This document shows, one piece after another, positions 12,552 through 22,045 of a stretch of 50,800 nucleotides of DNA (positions are counted from its first letter, which is position 1; each line of letters begins with the position of its first letter). The stretch is from IMG/VR virus record IMGVR_UViG_2563366874_000012; one strand, given 5' to 3'. The notes under the pieces are model-generated. The model saw only the letters and a list, made by a program, of their open reading frames with translations. It was not told where the DNA came from and ran no database searches. Source of the stretch: a virus. Taxonomy: Duplodnaviria > Heunggongvirae > Uroviricota > Caudoviricetes. The position numbers and the translations under genes are program-made.

Positions 12552-13325
12552 TTAGAACTGTTCATTGCCATCGAGGTTAGGTAGCATAATTTTTTCAATC
12601 AAGGCGAGAGCCTTTTTGTCCCGGTCAGCGAAGTATTTCGGGGCATATTGCGGCAACCAAATATTGTTAAAATGTTCTTTGAAATCTGCTAAATATTCAT
12701 TTGGGTACAGCCTTGCAGGGTATACGCGACCATCGGGATATTCATGGTCATAGGTAGGGAATGTTTTGGGTTCTACGTTTCTATTATCTCTTAACCATTG
12801 TGAAAATACTCTTCCTTGTGAAATGTCAGGAACCATTTTTTCTGGGAGTGTGTACCCTGCTTGTTCAAGAGGTGCAACCAAGTTGAATGTCAGTTCATTA
12901 AGAATAGAAAAGTGCGTGTGAGGAATTCTACTACGATTAACCATGTACCGTTTTAAATGTACAGGCATTTCTGCTGTAGTTCTTTCCCCTGACATCCATT
13001 CACGAACCCATCTTGAAACCTGGACTGCAAATTTGGGCGATAGCCACTGCGCTAGATTAATAGCGATGTCAGGATGCACCCATGTCCCTTGGTTTTCAGG
13101 TCTTCCACCTTTAAATGATTGAATTAACTCCGATATGGGAATTCCCATATCGCGTGATAATTCGTCAAAAAACTCTTGAGTAGTTTTGAGTCTAGTGTAA
13201 TCAGAGAGCAGTTTGCCCGCAGTTCTACACATTGATGTGGCGTTTATGTAACCATCTTTGGCACGTAAATGTATTATTTCGCCGTCAATTTCACGAGAAA
13301 TCAAAGATAATTGAAAGGATGTCAT
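12552..13325 (-). CDS. KilA-N domain protein (antirepressor-like DNA-binding N-terminus)
   Basis: 257-aa ORF MTSFQLSLISREIDGEIIHLRAKDGYINATSMCRTAGKLLSDYTRLKTTQEFFDEL, typical KilA-N N-terminus. Confidence 0.65.
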   Translation of the reverse strand: MTSFQLSLISREIDGEIIHLRAKDGYINATSMCRTAGKLLSDYTRLKTTQEFFDELSRDMGIPISELIQSFKGGRPENQGTWVHPDIAINLAQWLSPKFAVQVSRWVREWMSGERTTAEMPVHLKRYMVNRSRIPHTHFSILNELTFNLVAPLEQAGYTLPEKMVPDISQGRVFSQWLRDNRNVEPKTFPTYDHEYPDGRVYPARLYPNEYLADFKEHFNNIWLPQYAPKYFADRDKKALALIEKIMLPNLDGNEQF

Positions 13326-13847
13326 TGAAAATTCCTCAAGTTGGAGAGTTCTGGAACATTAAGGCGAGGTGGCAGTAATGCACCATCTGTAATCTTTTGA
13401 TACTGACGTAATCGGGCCTGATGTGCAACGCCTTGCAAGTATGTAACTCATTGAAAACGATCATTTTTATCTATTGACATCAAATGGCAAACTGTCATTG
13501 TGCGGCTATGGCAAGTGGCAAATGCTTATAAATCATATGGATATAAATAGTACAGAAAGAGTTGTTTTCTCTAGGATATGAGTATACGCCCAATGCTGAT
13601 TGGTTGAATTTTGTTCTTGTTTTAAAGGGTAAGAGTTTAAAGTGTTGGCAGTGATGTATTGGATAGTTAGAATTGCTGTGGGTGCTTGAGGCTATCTGCC
13701 TCGGGCATGAACACCAAAGGTAGATAGAGAAAAGCCCCAGTTAACATTACGCGTCCTGCAAGACGTTTAACATTAATCTGAGGCCATATCTATGCGACAC
13801 ATAGAGATTAGCCTCTTGCGGACCGAAAGGTCAAGGAGAAGCAGGCT

Positions 13848-13973
13848 ATGAAGCAGCAAAAGGCGATGTTAATCGCCCTGATCGTCATCTGTTTAACCGT
13901 CATAGTGACGGCACTGGTAACGAGGAAAGACCTCTGCGAGGTACGAATCCGAACTGGCAGACGGAGGCTCTGA
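13848..13973 (+). CDS. Hok/Gef-family type I toxin homologue with divergent, short C-terminus (possibly inactive)
   Basis: 41-aa ORF MKQQKAMLIALIVICLTVIVTALVTRKDLCEVRIRTGRRRL*; matches recalled HokD/Gef through ...CEVRIRTG then diverges and stops about 10 codons early; 19-codon upstream ORF ends overlapping the ATG. Confidence 0.55.
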   Translation: MKQQKAMLIALIVICLTVIVTALVTRKDLCEVRIRTGRRRL

Positions 13974-14055
13974 TTCGTAGACTACTAATCTGAGTAAAAG
14001 ACCCAGCGGGGAAAGAACCACGCCGGGACTAGTTAATAAGATATTTATAGCGTGG

Positions 14056-14397
14056 CTATTCTTTTTTTGCGGTATAGACTTTTTCGCCTGAGAAGTCTGG
14101 AGCTACCCAAAAGTTAATATTAAACTGAGCATCATCGCTTAGTTCAACACGGTGCCAGTATTGTGGTGGGCTTGTTGCAAAAGCGCCAGCATTAATGACT
14201 ACTTTTATCTCCGGTTCAGTAGCATTCTCATCAGCAAAACCATAATATGTTACAGTACCTTCCATCACGCATAACTGTCCAAAAACACCTGCTGCTGTAT
14301 TATGATGTGTTAATAACGCTGAAGGTACGTTCTCTTTTGTGAAGAACGGAGTTGAGCGTTTGATTACCCAGTCTTTAGGAATTCTCTTGTGTGTCAT
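14056..14397 (-). CDS. YeaR-like DUF1971 (cupin-type) protein
   Basis: 113-aa ORF MTHKRIPKDWVIKRSTPFFTKENVPSALLTHHNTAAGVFGQLCVMEGTVTYYGFADE... aligns by eye with E. coli YeaR (RSTPFW...LSVMHG.V.Y.GYADE...FNIDFFVAPE); GGAGGTGG SD. Confidence 0.6.
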   Translation of the reverse strand: MTHKRIPKDWVIKRSTPFFTKENVPSALLTHHNTAAGVFGQLCVMEGTVTYYGFADENATEPEIKVVINAGAFATSPPQYWHRVELSDDAQFNINFWVAPDFSGEKVYTAKKE

Positions 14398-14765
14398 AAC
14401 CACCTCCCATAAAACATGCATTATAAATGCACCTTTTTGAGGGTTATGTCAAGCTGTTATGAAACACATAATTGATATGTTGATTAGAGGAGAAGATAGA
14501 ATCAATATGGTTGTTTTTCGTATAACTATTTGTTTTACTTTTAGTTTGTGCATTCTGTGTGTTAGGAATAACTTATTAAAGTTTAACTAAAAAATCTCGA
14601 TATAGTCCGCATAGATTACTGTTACTGAATCTTATTGTGTGCATTAGTTGTGTTCTGAAATTTCAATTTAATTACTTATGATATATTTTTAACGATAAAT
14701 GTTTTCCGGGTGAAAGACAGTGGGGGATGAGATAAGCAATATATCATTAATCTTGATTATTTCCA

Positions 14766-14825
14766 GGATGCCTTTACTGTGCATATAAATAAATCATATA
14801 CGCATCAAATAATGTAAAGGCATCC
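14766..14825. repeat. Long inverted repeat (12-bp perfect arms, 36-nt spacer) in AT-rich non-coding island
   Basis: GGATGCCTTTAC (14766-14777) and GTAAAGGCATCC (14814-14825). Confidence 0.6.
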
Positions 14826-15046
14826 TTTTAGATATATCTTATCAAATGTTAATGATTTGAGTGGGAAACATGATTCCAGAAACTAATCATGCGGCTACTT
14901 TATAAAAATAATGCCCATATAAAACAGCCAGCGAAAAGGATTACGGATAAAAAAGGAGCGAGATGTGCATAGTTGTTATTTTCCATGTTTAACCACCTTA
15001 AATAATTGATGATGACGGGATGTGCATCTGTAATGCTTTTGTTGAA

Positions 15047-15081
15047 ATGTTATGATAAAAAAGAACTTTTTCATAACATTA
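15047..15081. repeat. Near-perfect palindrome in AT-rich non-coding island
   Basis: AATGTTATGA-taaaaaagaacttt-TCATAACATT; second GATGTGCAT direct-repeat pair at about 14961 and 15020. Confidence 0.5.
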
Positions 15082-15264
15082 AAATGTAATTTATCTAATC
15101 GTTTTTAATAATAAGTGTTGTATTTCTATCCTTGTATCAGCTATTTGATATGTAGTGTTTGTTCATGTTATGTGGAGCTTTACACCATAGCCAGTTTATT
15201 TATACTTTATTCGTCAGCCTGAACAACTGGCATCTGCTGCACTGCGCCATCGAGAGATTGAGAA

Positions 15265-15864
15265 ATGGCGCATATACAACTGGTCAAACAAACCTCTTCT
15301 GGACTACTTCTCCCGGCGACGCCGGAGAGTTGCGATTTTTTGCATCAAATCAAAATAGGCGAGTGGATACACGCAGACTTTAAGCGTGTGCGTAACTACG
15401 CATTCCACAAGCGTTTTTTCAAACTCCTGCAACTGGGATTCGATTACTGGACTCCGGTCGGTGGGGCGATCACGCCTCGCGAACGAAAGCTGGTTTCAGG
15501 ATTCGTTGATTACCTATGTGAATCAGTAGGCCGGGAACATACGCCAGCTCTGAGCGAAGCCGCAGAGCAATATCTGAATACAGTTGCGACACGCAGAACC
15601 CGGGATACGGCATTGCTAAAGTCGTTTGAGGCTTTCCGCGAGTGGGTAACCATTCAGGCCGGATTTTACACCGAGCATCTTTATCCTGATGGTAGCCATG
15701 GGCGTCGGGCGAAATCCATCGCTTTTGCGAATATGGACGAAACCGAGTTTCAGCAGGTTTATAAATCTGTTCTGAATGTGCTGTGGAACTGGATTCTGTT
15801 CCGTAAATTTTCCTCTCCGGAACAAGTCGAAAATGTGACCGCGCAGCTGCTGGAGTTTGCGTAA
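15265..15864 (+). CDS. Hypothetical nin-region protein (possibly DUF1367-type)
   Basis: 199-aa ORF MAHIQLVKQTSSGLLLPATPESCDFLHQIKIGEWIHADFKRVRNYAFHKRFFKLL...; first gene after the AT-rich island, translationally coupled to the next gene (TAATG). Confidence 0.5.
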   Translation: MAHIQLVKQTSSGLLLPATPESCDFLHQIKIGEWIHADFKRVRNYAFHKRFFKLLQLGFDYWTPVGGAITPRERKLVSGFVDYLCESVGREHTPALSEAAEQYLNTVATRRTRDTALLKSFEAFREWVTIQAGFYTEHLYPDGSHGRRAKSIAFANMDETEFQQVYKSVLNVLWNWILFRKFSSPEQVENVTAQLLEFA

Positions 15865-16154
15865 TGGTGGATTTACGTAAAGCGGCGCGGGGGCAGATGT
15901 GCACCGTCAGAATTCCTGGCTACTGCAATCACGATCCGGAAACGTCTGTGCTGGCGCATTACCGACTGGCGGGAACGTGCGGAACAGCGACAAAACCACA
16001 CGATATGCAGGCGGCGATTGCCTGTAGCTCATGCCACGATCTAATCGACGGGCGGGTAAAAACCAGCGATTACACCAAAGAAGAATTACGCCTGATGCAT
16101 GCAGAAGGTGTTTTTCGCACACAAGAAATCTGGAGAAAGGAGGGATATTTGTGA
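15864..16154 (+). CDS. YbcO-like DUF1364 protein (Cys/His metal-binding, putative nuclease)
   Basis: 96-aa ORF MVDLRKAARGQMCTVRIPGYCNHDPETSVLAHYRLAGTCGTATKPHDMQAAIACSSCHD, resembling recalled DLP12 YbcO. Confidence 0.6.
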   Translation: MVDLRKAARGQMCTVRIPGYCNHDPETSVLAHYRLAGTCGTATKPHDMQAAIACSSCHDLIDGRVKTSDYTKEELRLMHAEGVFRTQEIWRKEGYL

Positions 16155-16693
16155 TTTACCCAACGAATACAGGAAAAAGCGGAGAACACCTTCGTCTCGC
16201 CACGCTGGAAAGTGTCTGGATTCAGGGCAAACTGCGTATGTGGGGGCGCTGGTCGTATATTGGCGGTGGCAGGTCAGGAAATATGTTCAATCAGTTGTTG
16301 GCATCCAAAAAATTGACGAAAACAGCCATCAATGAAGCCCTGCGCAGAATGAAAAAAGCGGGAATAGAGAAAGCTGAGCTGGAAGCGTTTTTGCGAGAGA
16401 TGATCAACGGCAAGCAAAAGAGCTGGCTGGCGCATTGTACTGATGCAGAGGCGTTATGTATTGATCGAGTCATAAGTGAGGTGCTGGCAGAGCATCCTGG
16501 ATTGATTAGTGTCCTCCGGCAACGGTATGAAGGACGGGGGATGACTAAGCGCAAAATGGCTGAATTGCTAAATGATGCACATCCTGAGTGGTGTTTTAGC
16601 ACATGCGAAAAGCGAATTGCTAATTGGTTGGCTGTTGCTGAGTATGCCCTATATATTCCCATGCGAGAATCATTTGCTCAAAAAATAGCTTGA
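16151..16693 (+). CDS. Late-gene antiterminator Q-like protein
   Basis: 180-aa ORF from GTG overlapping the upstream stop (GTGA); Cys/His-containing; followed by promoter-like element and short-transcript terminator (PR'/tR' architecture); call is largely positional. Confidence 0.55.
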   Translation: MIYPTNTGKSGEHLRLATLESVWIQGKLRMWGRWSYIGGGRSGNMFNQLLASKKLTKTAINEALRRMKKAGIEKAELEAFLREMINGKQKSWLAHCTDAEALCIDRVISEVLAEHPGLISVLRQRYEGRGMTKRKMAELLNDAHPEWCFSTCEKRIANWLAVAEYALYIPMRESFAQKIA

Positions 16694-16718
16694 TTTTTTA
16701 CGCATAAACTGCTTCAAT
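16690..16718 (+). promoter_or_regulatory. Candidate late promoter PR' (with qut region)
   Basis: TTGATT (16690-16695), 17-nt spacer, TTCAAT (16713-16718), about 60 nt upstream of the tR'-like terminator. Confidence 0.4.
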
Positions 16719-16778
16719 TCCGGTATGCTTCGCAAAGCTGTATCGCGAGGCGAACCAAGCGCATGAACTTTACCAGAA

Positions 16779-16805
16779 CCCGCCATTGAGCGGGTTTTGT
16801 TGTTT
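16779..16805 (+). terminator. Intrinsic terminator (tR'-like)
   Basis: CCCGC-cattga-GCGGG hairpin followed by TTTTGTTGTTT. Confidence 0.55.
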
Positions 16806-16914
16806 CTGGTACTGGTGAACCTGATGTTTCATTTCTGGAGCGCGATTCCTGGCGGAATACCTAGAATCGAGACATTCTGGTAAAATTGTTTTCAGTACAG
16901 GATGTGGAGGTGAG

Positions 16915-17484
16915 ATGAGAGAACTACCTAAAGATTATTTTTTAGGAGTAGATGATGAGCTCGTCGATTATCTTGAAAAACAAGGGGAAGAGACGATACG
17001 AGAGATTCATCTTTCTAACAAAACCAATGTTGAGAATGGATACAAACTTCTGAACATTCAGATTGTTGGAATTGGTTCATCTTTTTTATTGCTGACACAG
17101 AAAACTAATTTCGATTTTCTCACCGCCGGAATTACCTCATTTACATTACTATGGACATGGTGCGCCATTTACTTGGTATGTACTGGTTTATCTGTGAAGG
17201 TTAGGGGCCTGATCAATGCCCCTCCTGATCATATATATCATGAAAAATATAAGGATATGGAGCCCTCGAGCTTTAAAATATTCGCTGATGCAGGATATTT
17301 AGGACCTGATAAGTTATTGCCGCTTATACGAAGGTATCGCCTTGTTGACTTGAGTGATACAGCAAGAGAGTTACTGTTGGAAAATGAGAAAATCCGCACG
17401 AGTCTCGATAAAGCAAGGATGTATACCATCCTTGCTCCGGTAGCGGCGATGTTTATCTCGGCTGTTTTTTTATATGTTCAATGA
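16915..17484 (+). CDS. Uncharacterised membrane protein (moron between Q and lysis genes)
   Basis: 189-aa ORF, GGAGGTGAG SD; hydrophobic segments LLNIQIVGIGSSFLLL, FLTAGITSFTLLWTWCAIYLVCTGL and C-terminal MYTILAPVAAMFISAVFLYVQ; visibly AT-rich. Confidence 0.5.
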   Translation: MRELPKDYFLGVDDELVDYLEKQGEETIREIHLSNKTNVENGYKLLNIQIVGIGSSFLLLTQKTNFDFLTAGITSFTLLWTWCAIYLVCTGLSVKVRGLINAPPDHIYHEKYKDMEPSSFKIFADAGYLGPDKLLPLIRRYRLVDLSDTARELLLENEKIRTSLDKARMYTILAPVAAMFISAVFLYVQ

Positions 17485-20450: not shown

Positions 20451-20587
20451 AATCTTAACTACAATATGATTCATTTTGATGATTGTTTCATAAGGAACAG
20501 TGAAGTAAGATCTAAGAGGAGTTAAATTTTATACAGTATAATCATAATATTGCAGCAAGGTGGTTATAATTGAAAGAATATTTAGAT

Positions 20588-22045
20588 ATGAATACATCTC
20601 ATGTAAGAGTTGTTACTCATATGTGTGGGTTCCTGGTTTGGCTCTATAGTCTTTCAATGTTGCCACCAATGGTTGTAGCATTGTTTTATAAAGAAAAAAG
20701 CCTGTTCGTTTTCTTTATAACTTTCGTTATATTTTTTTGCATTGGTGGCGGAGCGTGGTATACAACTAAGAAATCTGGCATTCAATTACGTACCCGTGAT
20801 GGGTTTATTATAATTGTAATGTTTTGGATTTTGTTTTCTGTTATTAGTGCATTCCCTTTATGGATTGACTCAGAACTTAATTTAACGTTCATTGATGCTC
20901 TGTTTGAAGGGGTTTCTGGAATAACAACAACAGGAGCAACTGTAATTGATGATGTTAGTTCATTACCTCGGGCATATTTGTACTATCGGTCACAGTTAAA
21001 TTTTATAGGTGGTTTAGGAGTTATTGTTCTGGCGGTTGCTGTATTGCCATTATTGGGTATTGGTGGTGCAAAGCTTTATCAGTCAGAAATGCCGGGGCCA
21101 TTTAAGGATGACAAACTCACTCCCCGCCTGGCCGATACGTCACGGACACTGTGGATAACTTATTCTTTATTAGGTATTGCTTGTATTGTCTGTTATAGAC
21201 TTGCAGGAATGCCTTTGTTTGATGCTATTTGTCACGGGATTTCCACAGTTTCGCTTGGTGGTTTCTCAACTCATAGCGAGAGTATCGGATATTTTAATAA
21301 CTATTTGGTTGAGCTGGTGGCTGGTTCTTTTTCCCTGCTATCGGCTTTCAACTTCACTCTTTGGTATATTGTTATTAGCAGGAAAACGATAAAACCTTTA
21401 ATCAGAGATATTGAACTTCGTTTCTTTCTGTTAATAGCCTTAGGGGTGATCATTGTTACCTCTTTCCAGGTCTGGCATATAGGTATGTATGACTTGCATG
21501 GAAGTTTTATTCATTCGTTTTTTCTTGCCAGCTCCATGCTCACTGATAATGGTTTAGCTACGCAGGATTATGCAAGTTGGCCCACGCACACGATAGTGTT
21601 TTTGCTGTTGTCAAGTTTCTTTGGGGGATGTATAGGTTCAACTTGTGGTGGAATTAAGTCACTTCGATTTCTTATACTTTTCAAACAAAGCAAACACGAG
21701 ATAAATCAGCTTTCTCATCCCAGAGCGTTGTTGAGTGTAAATGTAGGAGGGAAGATAGTTACAGATCGTGTAATGAGGTCTGTATGGAGTTTCTTTTTTC
21801 TTTATACTCTCTTCACGGTGTTTTTTATACTGGTGTTAAATGGTATGGGATATGATTTTCTTACATCATTTGCAACAGTGGCTGCATGTATTAATAATAT
21901 GGGATTAGGTTTTGGGGCTACTGCATCGTCATTCGGAGTGCTTAATGACATTGCAAAATGTTTAATGTGCATAGCTATGATTCTTGGTCGCCTTGAAATT
22001 TATCCTGTTATTATATTGTTTTCAGGTTTTTTTTGGCGCTCCTAA
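20588..22045 (+). CDS. trkG: TrkG potassium uptake membrane protein (Rac-encoded TrkH paralogue)
   Basis: 485-aa polytopic membrane protein MNTSHVRVVTHMCGFLVWLYSLSMLPPMVVALFYKEKS... with repeated TrkH-type pore segments; AT-rich; TATAAT at 20537-20542 upstream. Confidence 0.9.
   Translation: MNTSHVRVVTHMCGFLVWLYSLSMLPPMVVALFYKEKSLFVFFITFVIFFCIGGGAWYTTKKSGIQLRTRDGFIIIVMFWILFSVISAFPLWIDSELNLTFIDALFEGVSGITTTGATVIDDVSSLPRAYLYYRSQLNFIGGLGVIVLAVAVLPLLGIGGAKLYQSEMPGPFKDDKLTPRLADTSRTLWITYSLLGIACIVCYRLAGMPLFDAICHGISTVSLGGFSTHSESIGYFNNYLVELVAGSFSLLSAFNFTLWYIVISRKTIKPLIRDIELRFFLLIALGVIIVTSFQVWHIGMYDLHGSFIHSFFLASSMLTDNGLATQDYASWPTHTIVFLLLSSFFGGCIGSTCGGIKSLRFLILFKQSKHEINQLSHPRALLSVNVGGKIVTDRVMRSVWSFFFLYTLFTVFFILVLNGMGYDFLTSFATVAACINNMGLGFGATASSFGVLNDIAKCLMCIAMILGRLEIYPVIILFSGFFWRS

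Follow-up and report, generated by a model that had tools for sequence, protein, structure and literature searches.

A broken hok/sok copy in a Rac-like Escherichia coli prophage, with a degenerate toxin gene beside a nearly unchanged Sok region

The small Hok/Gef-type frame found in the window (the whole stretch of 50,800 nucleotides analysed here, IMG/VR record IMGVR_UViG_2563366874_000012) raises the question of whether a hok gene that stops at residue 41 encodes a toxin of unusual form or marks a toxin that has decayed. The initial annotation had noted that the frame resembles HokD/Gef and then reads RRRL before a stop, and had left the choice between a decayed toxin and a divergent allele. 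The comparisons described here, with features placed along the sequence in Table 1, identify the locus as a real but broken hok/sok copy in a Rac-like prophage of E. coli, in which, very probably, the toxin is dead and Sok has survived.

Table 1. Features of the truncated hok/sok locus and its right flank, in window coordinates
Feature	Positions	Strand	Basis and details
hok mRNA promoter, TTGGCA-17 nt-TAGAAT	13645-13673	+	Consensus scan (10/12); alignment with relatives
hok mRNA leader to the hok AUG	13680-13850	+	Rfam RF01794; tac 5′ element GGGTGCTTGAGGC, stem-loops, Sok target, mok and hok ribosome-binding sites
Sok antitoxin RNA gene	13730-13798	-	Coordinates transferred by alignment from annotated sokW of 933W
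mini-mok, 19 codons	13792-13851	+	MRHIEISLLRTERSRRSRL then stop; its TGA overlaps the hok ATG as ATGA
Sok promoter	13805-13834	-	-35 TTGACC (13829-13834), 18-nt spacer, -10 TAATCT (13805-13810); read from the sequence, reverse complement
Truncated hok ORF, 41 aa	13848-13973	+	Translation, Pfam, and alignment; translates as MKQQKAMLIALIVICLTVIVTALVTRKDLCEVRIRTGRRRL then stop
Remnant of hokW-type C-terminal codons, FVDY-stop-SE-stop	13974-13997	+	Alignment and in-frame translation
Degenerate 3′ stem-loop of hok mRNA	14002-14027	+	Alignment and folding
Recombination junction	14012-14030	.	End of hok-cassette homology (BLAST)
Convergent DUF1971 (TehB-like) gene	14056-14397	-	Pfam PF09313, E 3.5e-26; RefSeq annotation

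The assignment of the frame to the Hok/Gef type stands. Its 41-residue translation matches the Pfam family HOK_GEF (PF01848) with E = 3.2e-16 and 59.1 bits (cut-off 22), and residues 1–37 are identical to those of HokD and HokW, much as the initial annotation had noted. The whole transmembrane helix is present, including Cys15, Thr17, Leu29, Cys30, and Glu31, and the start codon and SD sequence of hok are intact. The Pfam match spans profile positions 1–34 of 42 only. A frameshift at codon 38 leads into RRRL and a TGA stop, so that the form of about 50 residues with a periplasmic tail is not reached; the conserved Glu at 40/41 (E41 in the logo) and the Tyr/Cys site at 47/48 (48 in the logo) are missing from the peptide. 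The neighbouring frame past the frameshift reads QTEALIRRLLI followed by a stop, just as had been described. The NCBIfam Hok models give weak matches below their cut-offs, for the 41-residue peptide and for full-length HokW alike.

The region upstream of the toxin had been expected to hold mok and sok-type elements, and it does. The leader matches Rfam RF01794 (“sok”) over model positions 1–157 of 157, with 99.4 bits (gathering score 59) and E = 1e-22, and the region matches the annotated sokW and mokW of phage 933W. The references for alignment were 933W (hokW, mokW, and sokW annotated), Rac-SA53 (mok and hok annotated), and two chromosomal loci annotated as HokD. The -10 element of the hok promoter and the 5′ end of the transcript align with 933W, Rac-SA53, and the hokD-type cassettes, placing the start of transcription, we infer, at about 13678–13680. 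By segment alignment the leader is 94–99% identical to those of intact relatives; the mok/SD segment is one base off the hokD-type loci, and codons 1–37 of hok carry 1–3 substitutions in 111 nt relative to intact relatives. The strand matched by RF01794 is that of hok, and the model stops on the hok AUG. Thus RF01794 models the hok mRNA leader rather than the antisense Sok RNA, and automated calls of the Sok strand that are based on it are misleading.

The 19-codon frame that terminates on the hok ATG, pointed out earlier, is preceded by GAGG 8 nt upstream of its own ATG. Since the same peptide occurs, without change, in one intact hokD locus, this frame is the normal mini-mok of the hokD-type sub-lineage. 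Its overlap with the hok start predicts a mok leader that is translationally coupled to hok, as in other cassettes; according to published work, mok needs to be translated no farther than the start of hok (PMC9841398).

On the opposite strand the predicted Sok RNA has a single-stranded 5′ recognition tail over the SD sequence and ATG of mok, a long hairpin, and a GGGGCUUUU end. Its predicted fold (-28.7 kcal/mol, z -4.9) has the same shape as SokW, with 5′ tail, long hairpin, and U-run. Over the region compared, 13728–13800, it is one nucleotide off the Sok of intact hokD-type loci, and its recognition tail (13779–13798) is identical to theirs; relative to the hokW type it differs at nine alignment positions (seven substitutions and a 2-nt gap), seven of them in the recognition tail. 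Homology to sokW, the promoter, the hairpin, and the Rfam match all point in silico to a cis-antisense Sok over the mok start. An antisense sok promoter, of the kind whose search was suggested at the outset, can be read on the minus strand. Its -10 element coincides with the -10 of sokW (TAACCT), the site mutated to silence sokW as judged from the mutagenic primer YO-421 (Table 2) and the legend to Fig. 1E of PMC8621323, but it is left unflagged by a strict consensus scan, its -10 matching at 3 of 6 positions only. Position 13818 lies in the spacer of this promoter and also in the stem that surrounds the hok SD sequence; the window reads G there, against A in all the other copies examined (about 100 genomes, one phage record, and the 3 IMG/VR contigs that cover the site). 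This SNP, private to the window, is synonymous in the 19-codon frame (TTA to TTG).

The preserved part of the cassette, its 5′ two-thirds, gives way abruptly to a damaged 3′ third. The hokW-type reference tail ends in GQTEVAVFVDYESEK, and alignment with it reveals four coding lesions, the first of them at 13958. A -1 deletion at the 13958/13959 junction changes GGN-CAG to GGCAG and gives rise to RRRL and the TGA; a -2 deletion with substitutions in codons 41–43 restores the old frame; a GAA-to-TAA change at codon 48 (13986–13988) then interrupts it; and a -3 deletion lies ahead of the old stop. With the -1 deletion alone repaired, the tail would read GQTEALIRRLLI. The remnant preserved in the window, TTCGTAGACTAC (FVDY), is that of the hokW type, and the alignment thus traces the tail to a hokW-type allele (FVDYESEK) and not to a hokD-type one (FTAYEPEE). 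TACGAA (Tyr-Glu) is present in all 34 intact hokW-type DNA alleles compared among the IMG/VR matches listed, and the TACG motif at Tyr47/48 is destroyed in the window. The 38 nt after codon 37 contain 8–13 substitutions and 5 gapped positions, after which homology is lost. Among the intact hokW-type alleles listed, codons 38–49 show 3 synonymous changes against 1 non-synonymous change, a ratio that is suggestive at most, the search pattern having fixed codons 38–40 and 44–47 and left only codons 41–43 and 48–51 free.

None of these changes resembles a conserved variant of the C-terminus. The 51-residue frame is kept in about 115 listed hokW-type alleles as well as in 933W, Rac-SA53, and the two chromosomal hokD loci; since the intact hokD and hokW alleles that were aligned all keep this full frame, the decayed toxin is the correct branch of the earlier alternative. 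By sequence comparison, then, the locus descends from the hokD/hokW group of hok/sok cassettes and belongs to it as a degenerate allele rather than as a conserved short variant. It is filed as a degenerate member because it fails in the full-length tail, in the tac/fbi pairing, and in the 3′ hairpin.

The last two of these features concern the 3′ end of the mRNA. In intact relatives the 3′ stem-loop is a perfect hairpin of 8–9 bp; here the equivalent sequence has 7–8 mismatches and up to 2 gapped positions over 13997–14022 and a weak, imperfect predicted fold, so that the stable stem-loop protecting the processed mRNA is missing. The hairpin of intact hokW-type mRNAs itself varies by paired changes in the 3′ UTRs from IMG/VR, with GCGGGGGAG/CTCCCGC in one form and GCGAGGGAG/CCCTCGC in the other, and this natural covariation supports the stem. 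Homology to the cassette, which begins at 13644 or 13668, extends in BLAST alignments to 14011 and then resumes only at 15200. Its end at about 14012 falls upstream of the position that fbi occupies in relatives, where CCTCAACGCACCCGC is followed by an intrinsic terminator; both elements are absent downstream of the junction. No fbi-like complement of the transcript 5′ end was found in up to 800 nt downstream. A match at 14279 was considered as a substitute for fbi and rejected: it has mismatches at 4 of 14 positions, which is the level of chance, and lies inside the DUF1971 gene. A consensus terminator scan of 13400–14500 found no terminator-like site. An ATAGC/GCTAT stem with a T-run at about 14049–14068 is too weak to be considered a terminator, and the T-run codes for the C-terminus of the DUF1971 protein on the other strand. 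In minimum free energy (MFE) folds of the transcripts, about 395 nt long, of 933W and of a hokD locus, nucleotides 1–14 pair with nucleotides 377–391 to form the tac/fbi interaction. The 5′ end of the window transcript is predicted to pair only locally, with nucleotides 55–62, as in the open active form, and the tac/fbi pairing of the two ends is not found.

From about 14012–14028 onward the sequence is that of a gene module from outside the toxin–antitoxin system. Alignment with related prophages indicates that this DUF1971 module has replaced fbi, the terminator, and rem, and that it defines the truncation; the DUF1971 gene is linked to the truncated hok allele in every case. The replacement measures 1.19 kb (14013–15199). 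Between the DUF1971 and DUF1367 genes lies a stretch of about 850 nt (14422–15264) that is poor in open reading frames.

The damage is concentrated in the last 60 nt at the 3′ side, while the 5′ part is almost perfect, a pattern at odds with uniform neutral decay. It suggests either recombination with a copy that had already decayed or selection against the toxin. In the latter history, selection would have followed removal of fbi by insertion of DUF1971.

The prophage is lambdoid and Rac-like, and the cassette lies in it with the replication genes on one side and the nin/Q region on the other. The gene order runs from integrase through RalR/RalA, RecT, RecE, Kil, SieB, repressor/Cro/cII, and O to a DnaC-like gene; a KilA-N gene (12552–13325, minus strand) is next to the hok cassette, which is followed by the convergent DUF1971 gene and, farther to the right, by DUF1367, YbcO, Q, the lysis genes, and TrkG. 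The window is nearly collinear with Escherichia phage vB_EcoS-666R9. Rac-SA53 and the hokD-carrying prophages have an intact hok cassette in the same slot, followed by rem. [quoted passage not shown] After the lysis genes, a 491-residue open reading frame (20570–22045, plus strand) corresponds to the TrkG potassium-uptake gene annotated in that phage record; host-like cargo of this sort is typical of Rac.

The allele is neither rare nor confined to one phage. Among 5426 complete E. coli genomes, about 102–110 (approximately 104) contain a 461-nt segment with the allele at 99.8% identity, and three phage records and at least five IMG/VR contigs carry it too. The exact 41-residue peptide is encoded on at least 1000 contigs, whose source names include “MULTISPECIES” Enterobacteriaceae and E. 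marmotae. The claim that the gene had been missed by the track of open reading frames holds for the GenBank phage records but not for RefSeq, where PGAP annotates the identical 126-nt coding sequence as WP_001445775.1, “Hok/Gef family protein,” with no pseudogene flag. One IMG/VR contig (IMGVR_UViG_2718218453_000005, reverse strand, aligned to 13668–17000) carries the truncated hok and DUF1971 behind another left flank, which begins exactly at the cassette boundary, 13668, and its leader has six hokD-type differences. The flank and the leader differences imply that the allele has moved by recombination, within the cassette or at its edge. It is therefore present in at least two phage backgrounds and, being widespread as well, has not been rapidly purged.

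Intermediate alleles, having some of the lesions only or an intact hok beside DUF1971, were found neither in the complete E. coli genomes nor among the IMG/VR matches listed. In IMG/VR, intact hokW-type alleles number at least about 115, as against at least 5 of the truncated allele. At least 112 full-length hokW-type copies, representing 34 distinct DNA alleles, include 4 that are inactivated in other ways, two by a frameshifted start region and two by a stop at codon 4; at 4 of the 112 copies listed, decay of hok in prophages is not rare. A recent Hok catalogue (bioRxiv 10.1101/2025.08.07.668861) gives 5.1% of unique coding sequences as shorter than 40 residues, which are treated there as degenerate, and 2.6% as having internal stops; the truncated peptide does not appear in the part of its supplementary text that was searched.

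What the surviving elements would do can be described by reference to better-known relatives. Both RNAs, hok mRNA and Sok, are probably still transcribed. Lacking fbi, the hok transcript would be unable to reach the closed, long-lived, end-paired form and would instead fold directly into the open form, exposed to binding by Sok and destruction by RNase III, and the loss of the 3′ hairpin would leave it unstable at that end also. That no closed form could be stored, and that the mRNA would be open to Sok and RNase III, follows from the model for R1, in which mutations in the 3′ UTR remove active mRNA and the tac and fbi ends pair (PMC9841398). Any translation product would be the 41-residue peptide, with the membrane helix and without the periplasmic tail.

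By analogy with experiments on Gef and R1 Hok, in which the tail is needed for killing, this product should be non-toxic. In the R1 study, 18 of 20 possible premature stops in hok abolish toxicity, and so do Y48N, a lost stop codon, and a FLAG tag at the C-terminus (PMC9841398); loss of toxicity upon a cut at residue 37 is argued by analogy with these truncations. The periplasmic C-terminus of Gef has been proposed as the toxic domain, and its replacement by PhoA is non-toxic, although the membrane helix of HokC also contributes, in that mutations in the transmembrane region can abolish toxicity (PMC8509063). In the Hok catalogue, E41 and Y/C48 are described as conserved, the TACG motif as highly conserved and linked to TadA editing, and full-length HokD as toxic, being named among the toxic controls; its table of tested constructs includes a hokW-type coding sequence, 35_712 (bioRxiv 10.1101/2025.08.07.668861). 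The three additional arginines would lie on the periplasmic side and run against the positive-inside rule. The locus would thus no longer serve as a killer or as a helper of lysis, and at most a donor of Sok RNA would be left.

Other readings of the locus must be weighed against a dead toxin with a surviving Sok. It is very unlikely, in our estimation, that the 41-residue peptide is a functional short Hok, membrane-active and either toxic or a milder depolariser, in a working type I system with simplified regulation. The intact start codon, SD sequence, coupling frame, and transmembrane helix are what such a gene would need, the TM-region mutants of HokC imply that the helix matters, the allele is widespread, and RefSeq has not flagged it as a pseudogene; but four independent lesions, one of them an in-frame nonsense codon after the frame had been restored, are the signature of a pseudogene and not of a newly selected end. 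The loss of the Glu40/41 and Tyr/Cys47/48 sites, the inactivation of R1 Hok by truncations, Y48N, and C-terminal tags, the likely placement of RRR on the wrong side of the membrane, and the absence of fbi and the 3′ hairpin also speak against a short active toxin. Practically no weight can be given to an error of sequencing or assembly as the source of the frameshift, or to the frame being a product of chance. Single-base indels are a common type of error, but the tail has several lesions, not one, and the identical allele recurs in independent assemblies (about 104 complete genomes, 3 phage genomes, at least 5 IMG/VR contigs, and at least 1000 contigs), which excludes an artefact; a chance open frame is excluded by E values of 1e-16 in Pfam and 1e-22 in Rfam. 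A further Rfam match, to the snoRNA ceN48, is noise (E = 0.42).

The remaining readings accept that the toxin is lost and ask whether the remnant has a use. It may have been kept because Sok acts as an orphan antitoxin, providing anti-addiction or immunity against the hokD-type hok mRNAs of co-resident or incoming prophages and plasmids, and this we regard as unlikely. Beside a heavily damaged toxin 3′ part, hardly any change is seen in the sok gene, the sok promoter, or the leader; the recognition tail is that of intact hokD-type loci, with the single difference over the Sok region mentioned above; and the allele survived a recombination that placed it in another background. Potential targets are at hand, in that 30 of 30 carrier genomes among those listed have 2–5 hok-homologous places each, although these co-resident loci would need to be intact and to share the Sok target. 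The copies are almost identical, so that selection on sok is unmeasurable, and a recent recombination that has left no time for decay explains the 5′ conservation equally well. Against hokW-type mRNAs the nine differing positions, most of them in the recognition tail, are a further difficulty. Distinctly unlikely is the related proposal of a deliberately disarmed hok/sok, whose leader and Sok would act in trans as a shield against rival hokD-type killers, or as a tuner of a lysis helper at induction; the toxin half would then have been selected against after the DUF1971 insertion removed fbi and left the mRNA constitutively open.

If a dead toxin with a surviving Sok is the correct reading, as we consider very probable, the label “Hok/Gef family protein” almost certainly marks a dead toxin, and counts of active hok genes are inflated in E. 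coli lineages that carry this Rac-like prophage. RefSeq and UniRef already list this exact sequence under the family name, and inactivation of hok loci is a familiar phenomenon. What goes beyond the initial annotation is the hokW-type origin of the tail, the presence of several lesions, and the replacement of the 3′ regulatory end by a gene module. [quoted passage not shown]

The closest known systems are the hokD-type cassettes of E. coli lambdoid prophages (NZ_CP028589.2 and NZ_CP115324.1; annotated as “type I toxin-antitoxin system toxin HokD”). They share with the window the leader, the Sok region but for its one nucleotide, the 19-codon mini-mok, the hok SD sequence, codons 1–37 (with 1 substitution), and a position in the prophage upstream of the DUF1367, ybcO, and Q genes. 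Features of the hokD-type cassettes that the window lacks are the full 51-residue protein with its tail FTAYEPEE, the perfect 3′ hairpin, an fbi element with its pairing to the 5′ end, and an intrinsic terminator upstream of rem. The hokW-sokW system (with mokW) of the Stx2 phages 933W and Sp5 is about 91% identical over 13668–14011. Its mokW is an in-frame extension of 70 codons, whereas the window has the 19-codon upstream frame, and 933W retains both an intact hokW and the tac/fbi pairing, which the window has lost. In PMC8621323, sokW is established experimentally as an antitoxin, and HokW as a toxin that aids phage release after induction. When hokW-sokW is lost, phage release falls by half.

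The more distant hok/sok system of plasmid R1, whose Hok is about 44% identical to HokW, has the same architecture: a toxin mRNA with a tac 5′ element, a mok frame whose translation is coupled to that of hok, and Sok as a cis-antisense RNA across the start of mok. R1 relies on end-pairing by fbi and on 3′ processing; the window lacks both fbi and the protective hairpin, and its toxin is cut short. The inactivated hok loci of E. coli K-12 provide another parallel, since there too mutation has inactivated hok and spared part of the cassette. Pedersen and Gerdes reportedly found in 1999 that IS elements disrupt hokA, hokC, and hokE of K-12 and that point mutations do so in hokB. K-12 hokD matches the coding and 3′ part only (query positions 235–412), without sok and leader; in the window it is the opposite part that survives. 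The lesions in the window are of another type from those of the K-12 loci, comprising small indels, a nonsense codon, and the exchange of the 3′ end for a gene module.
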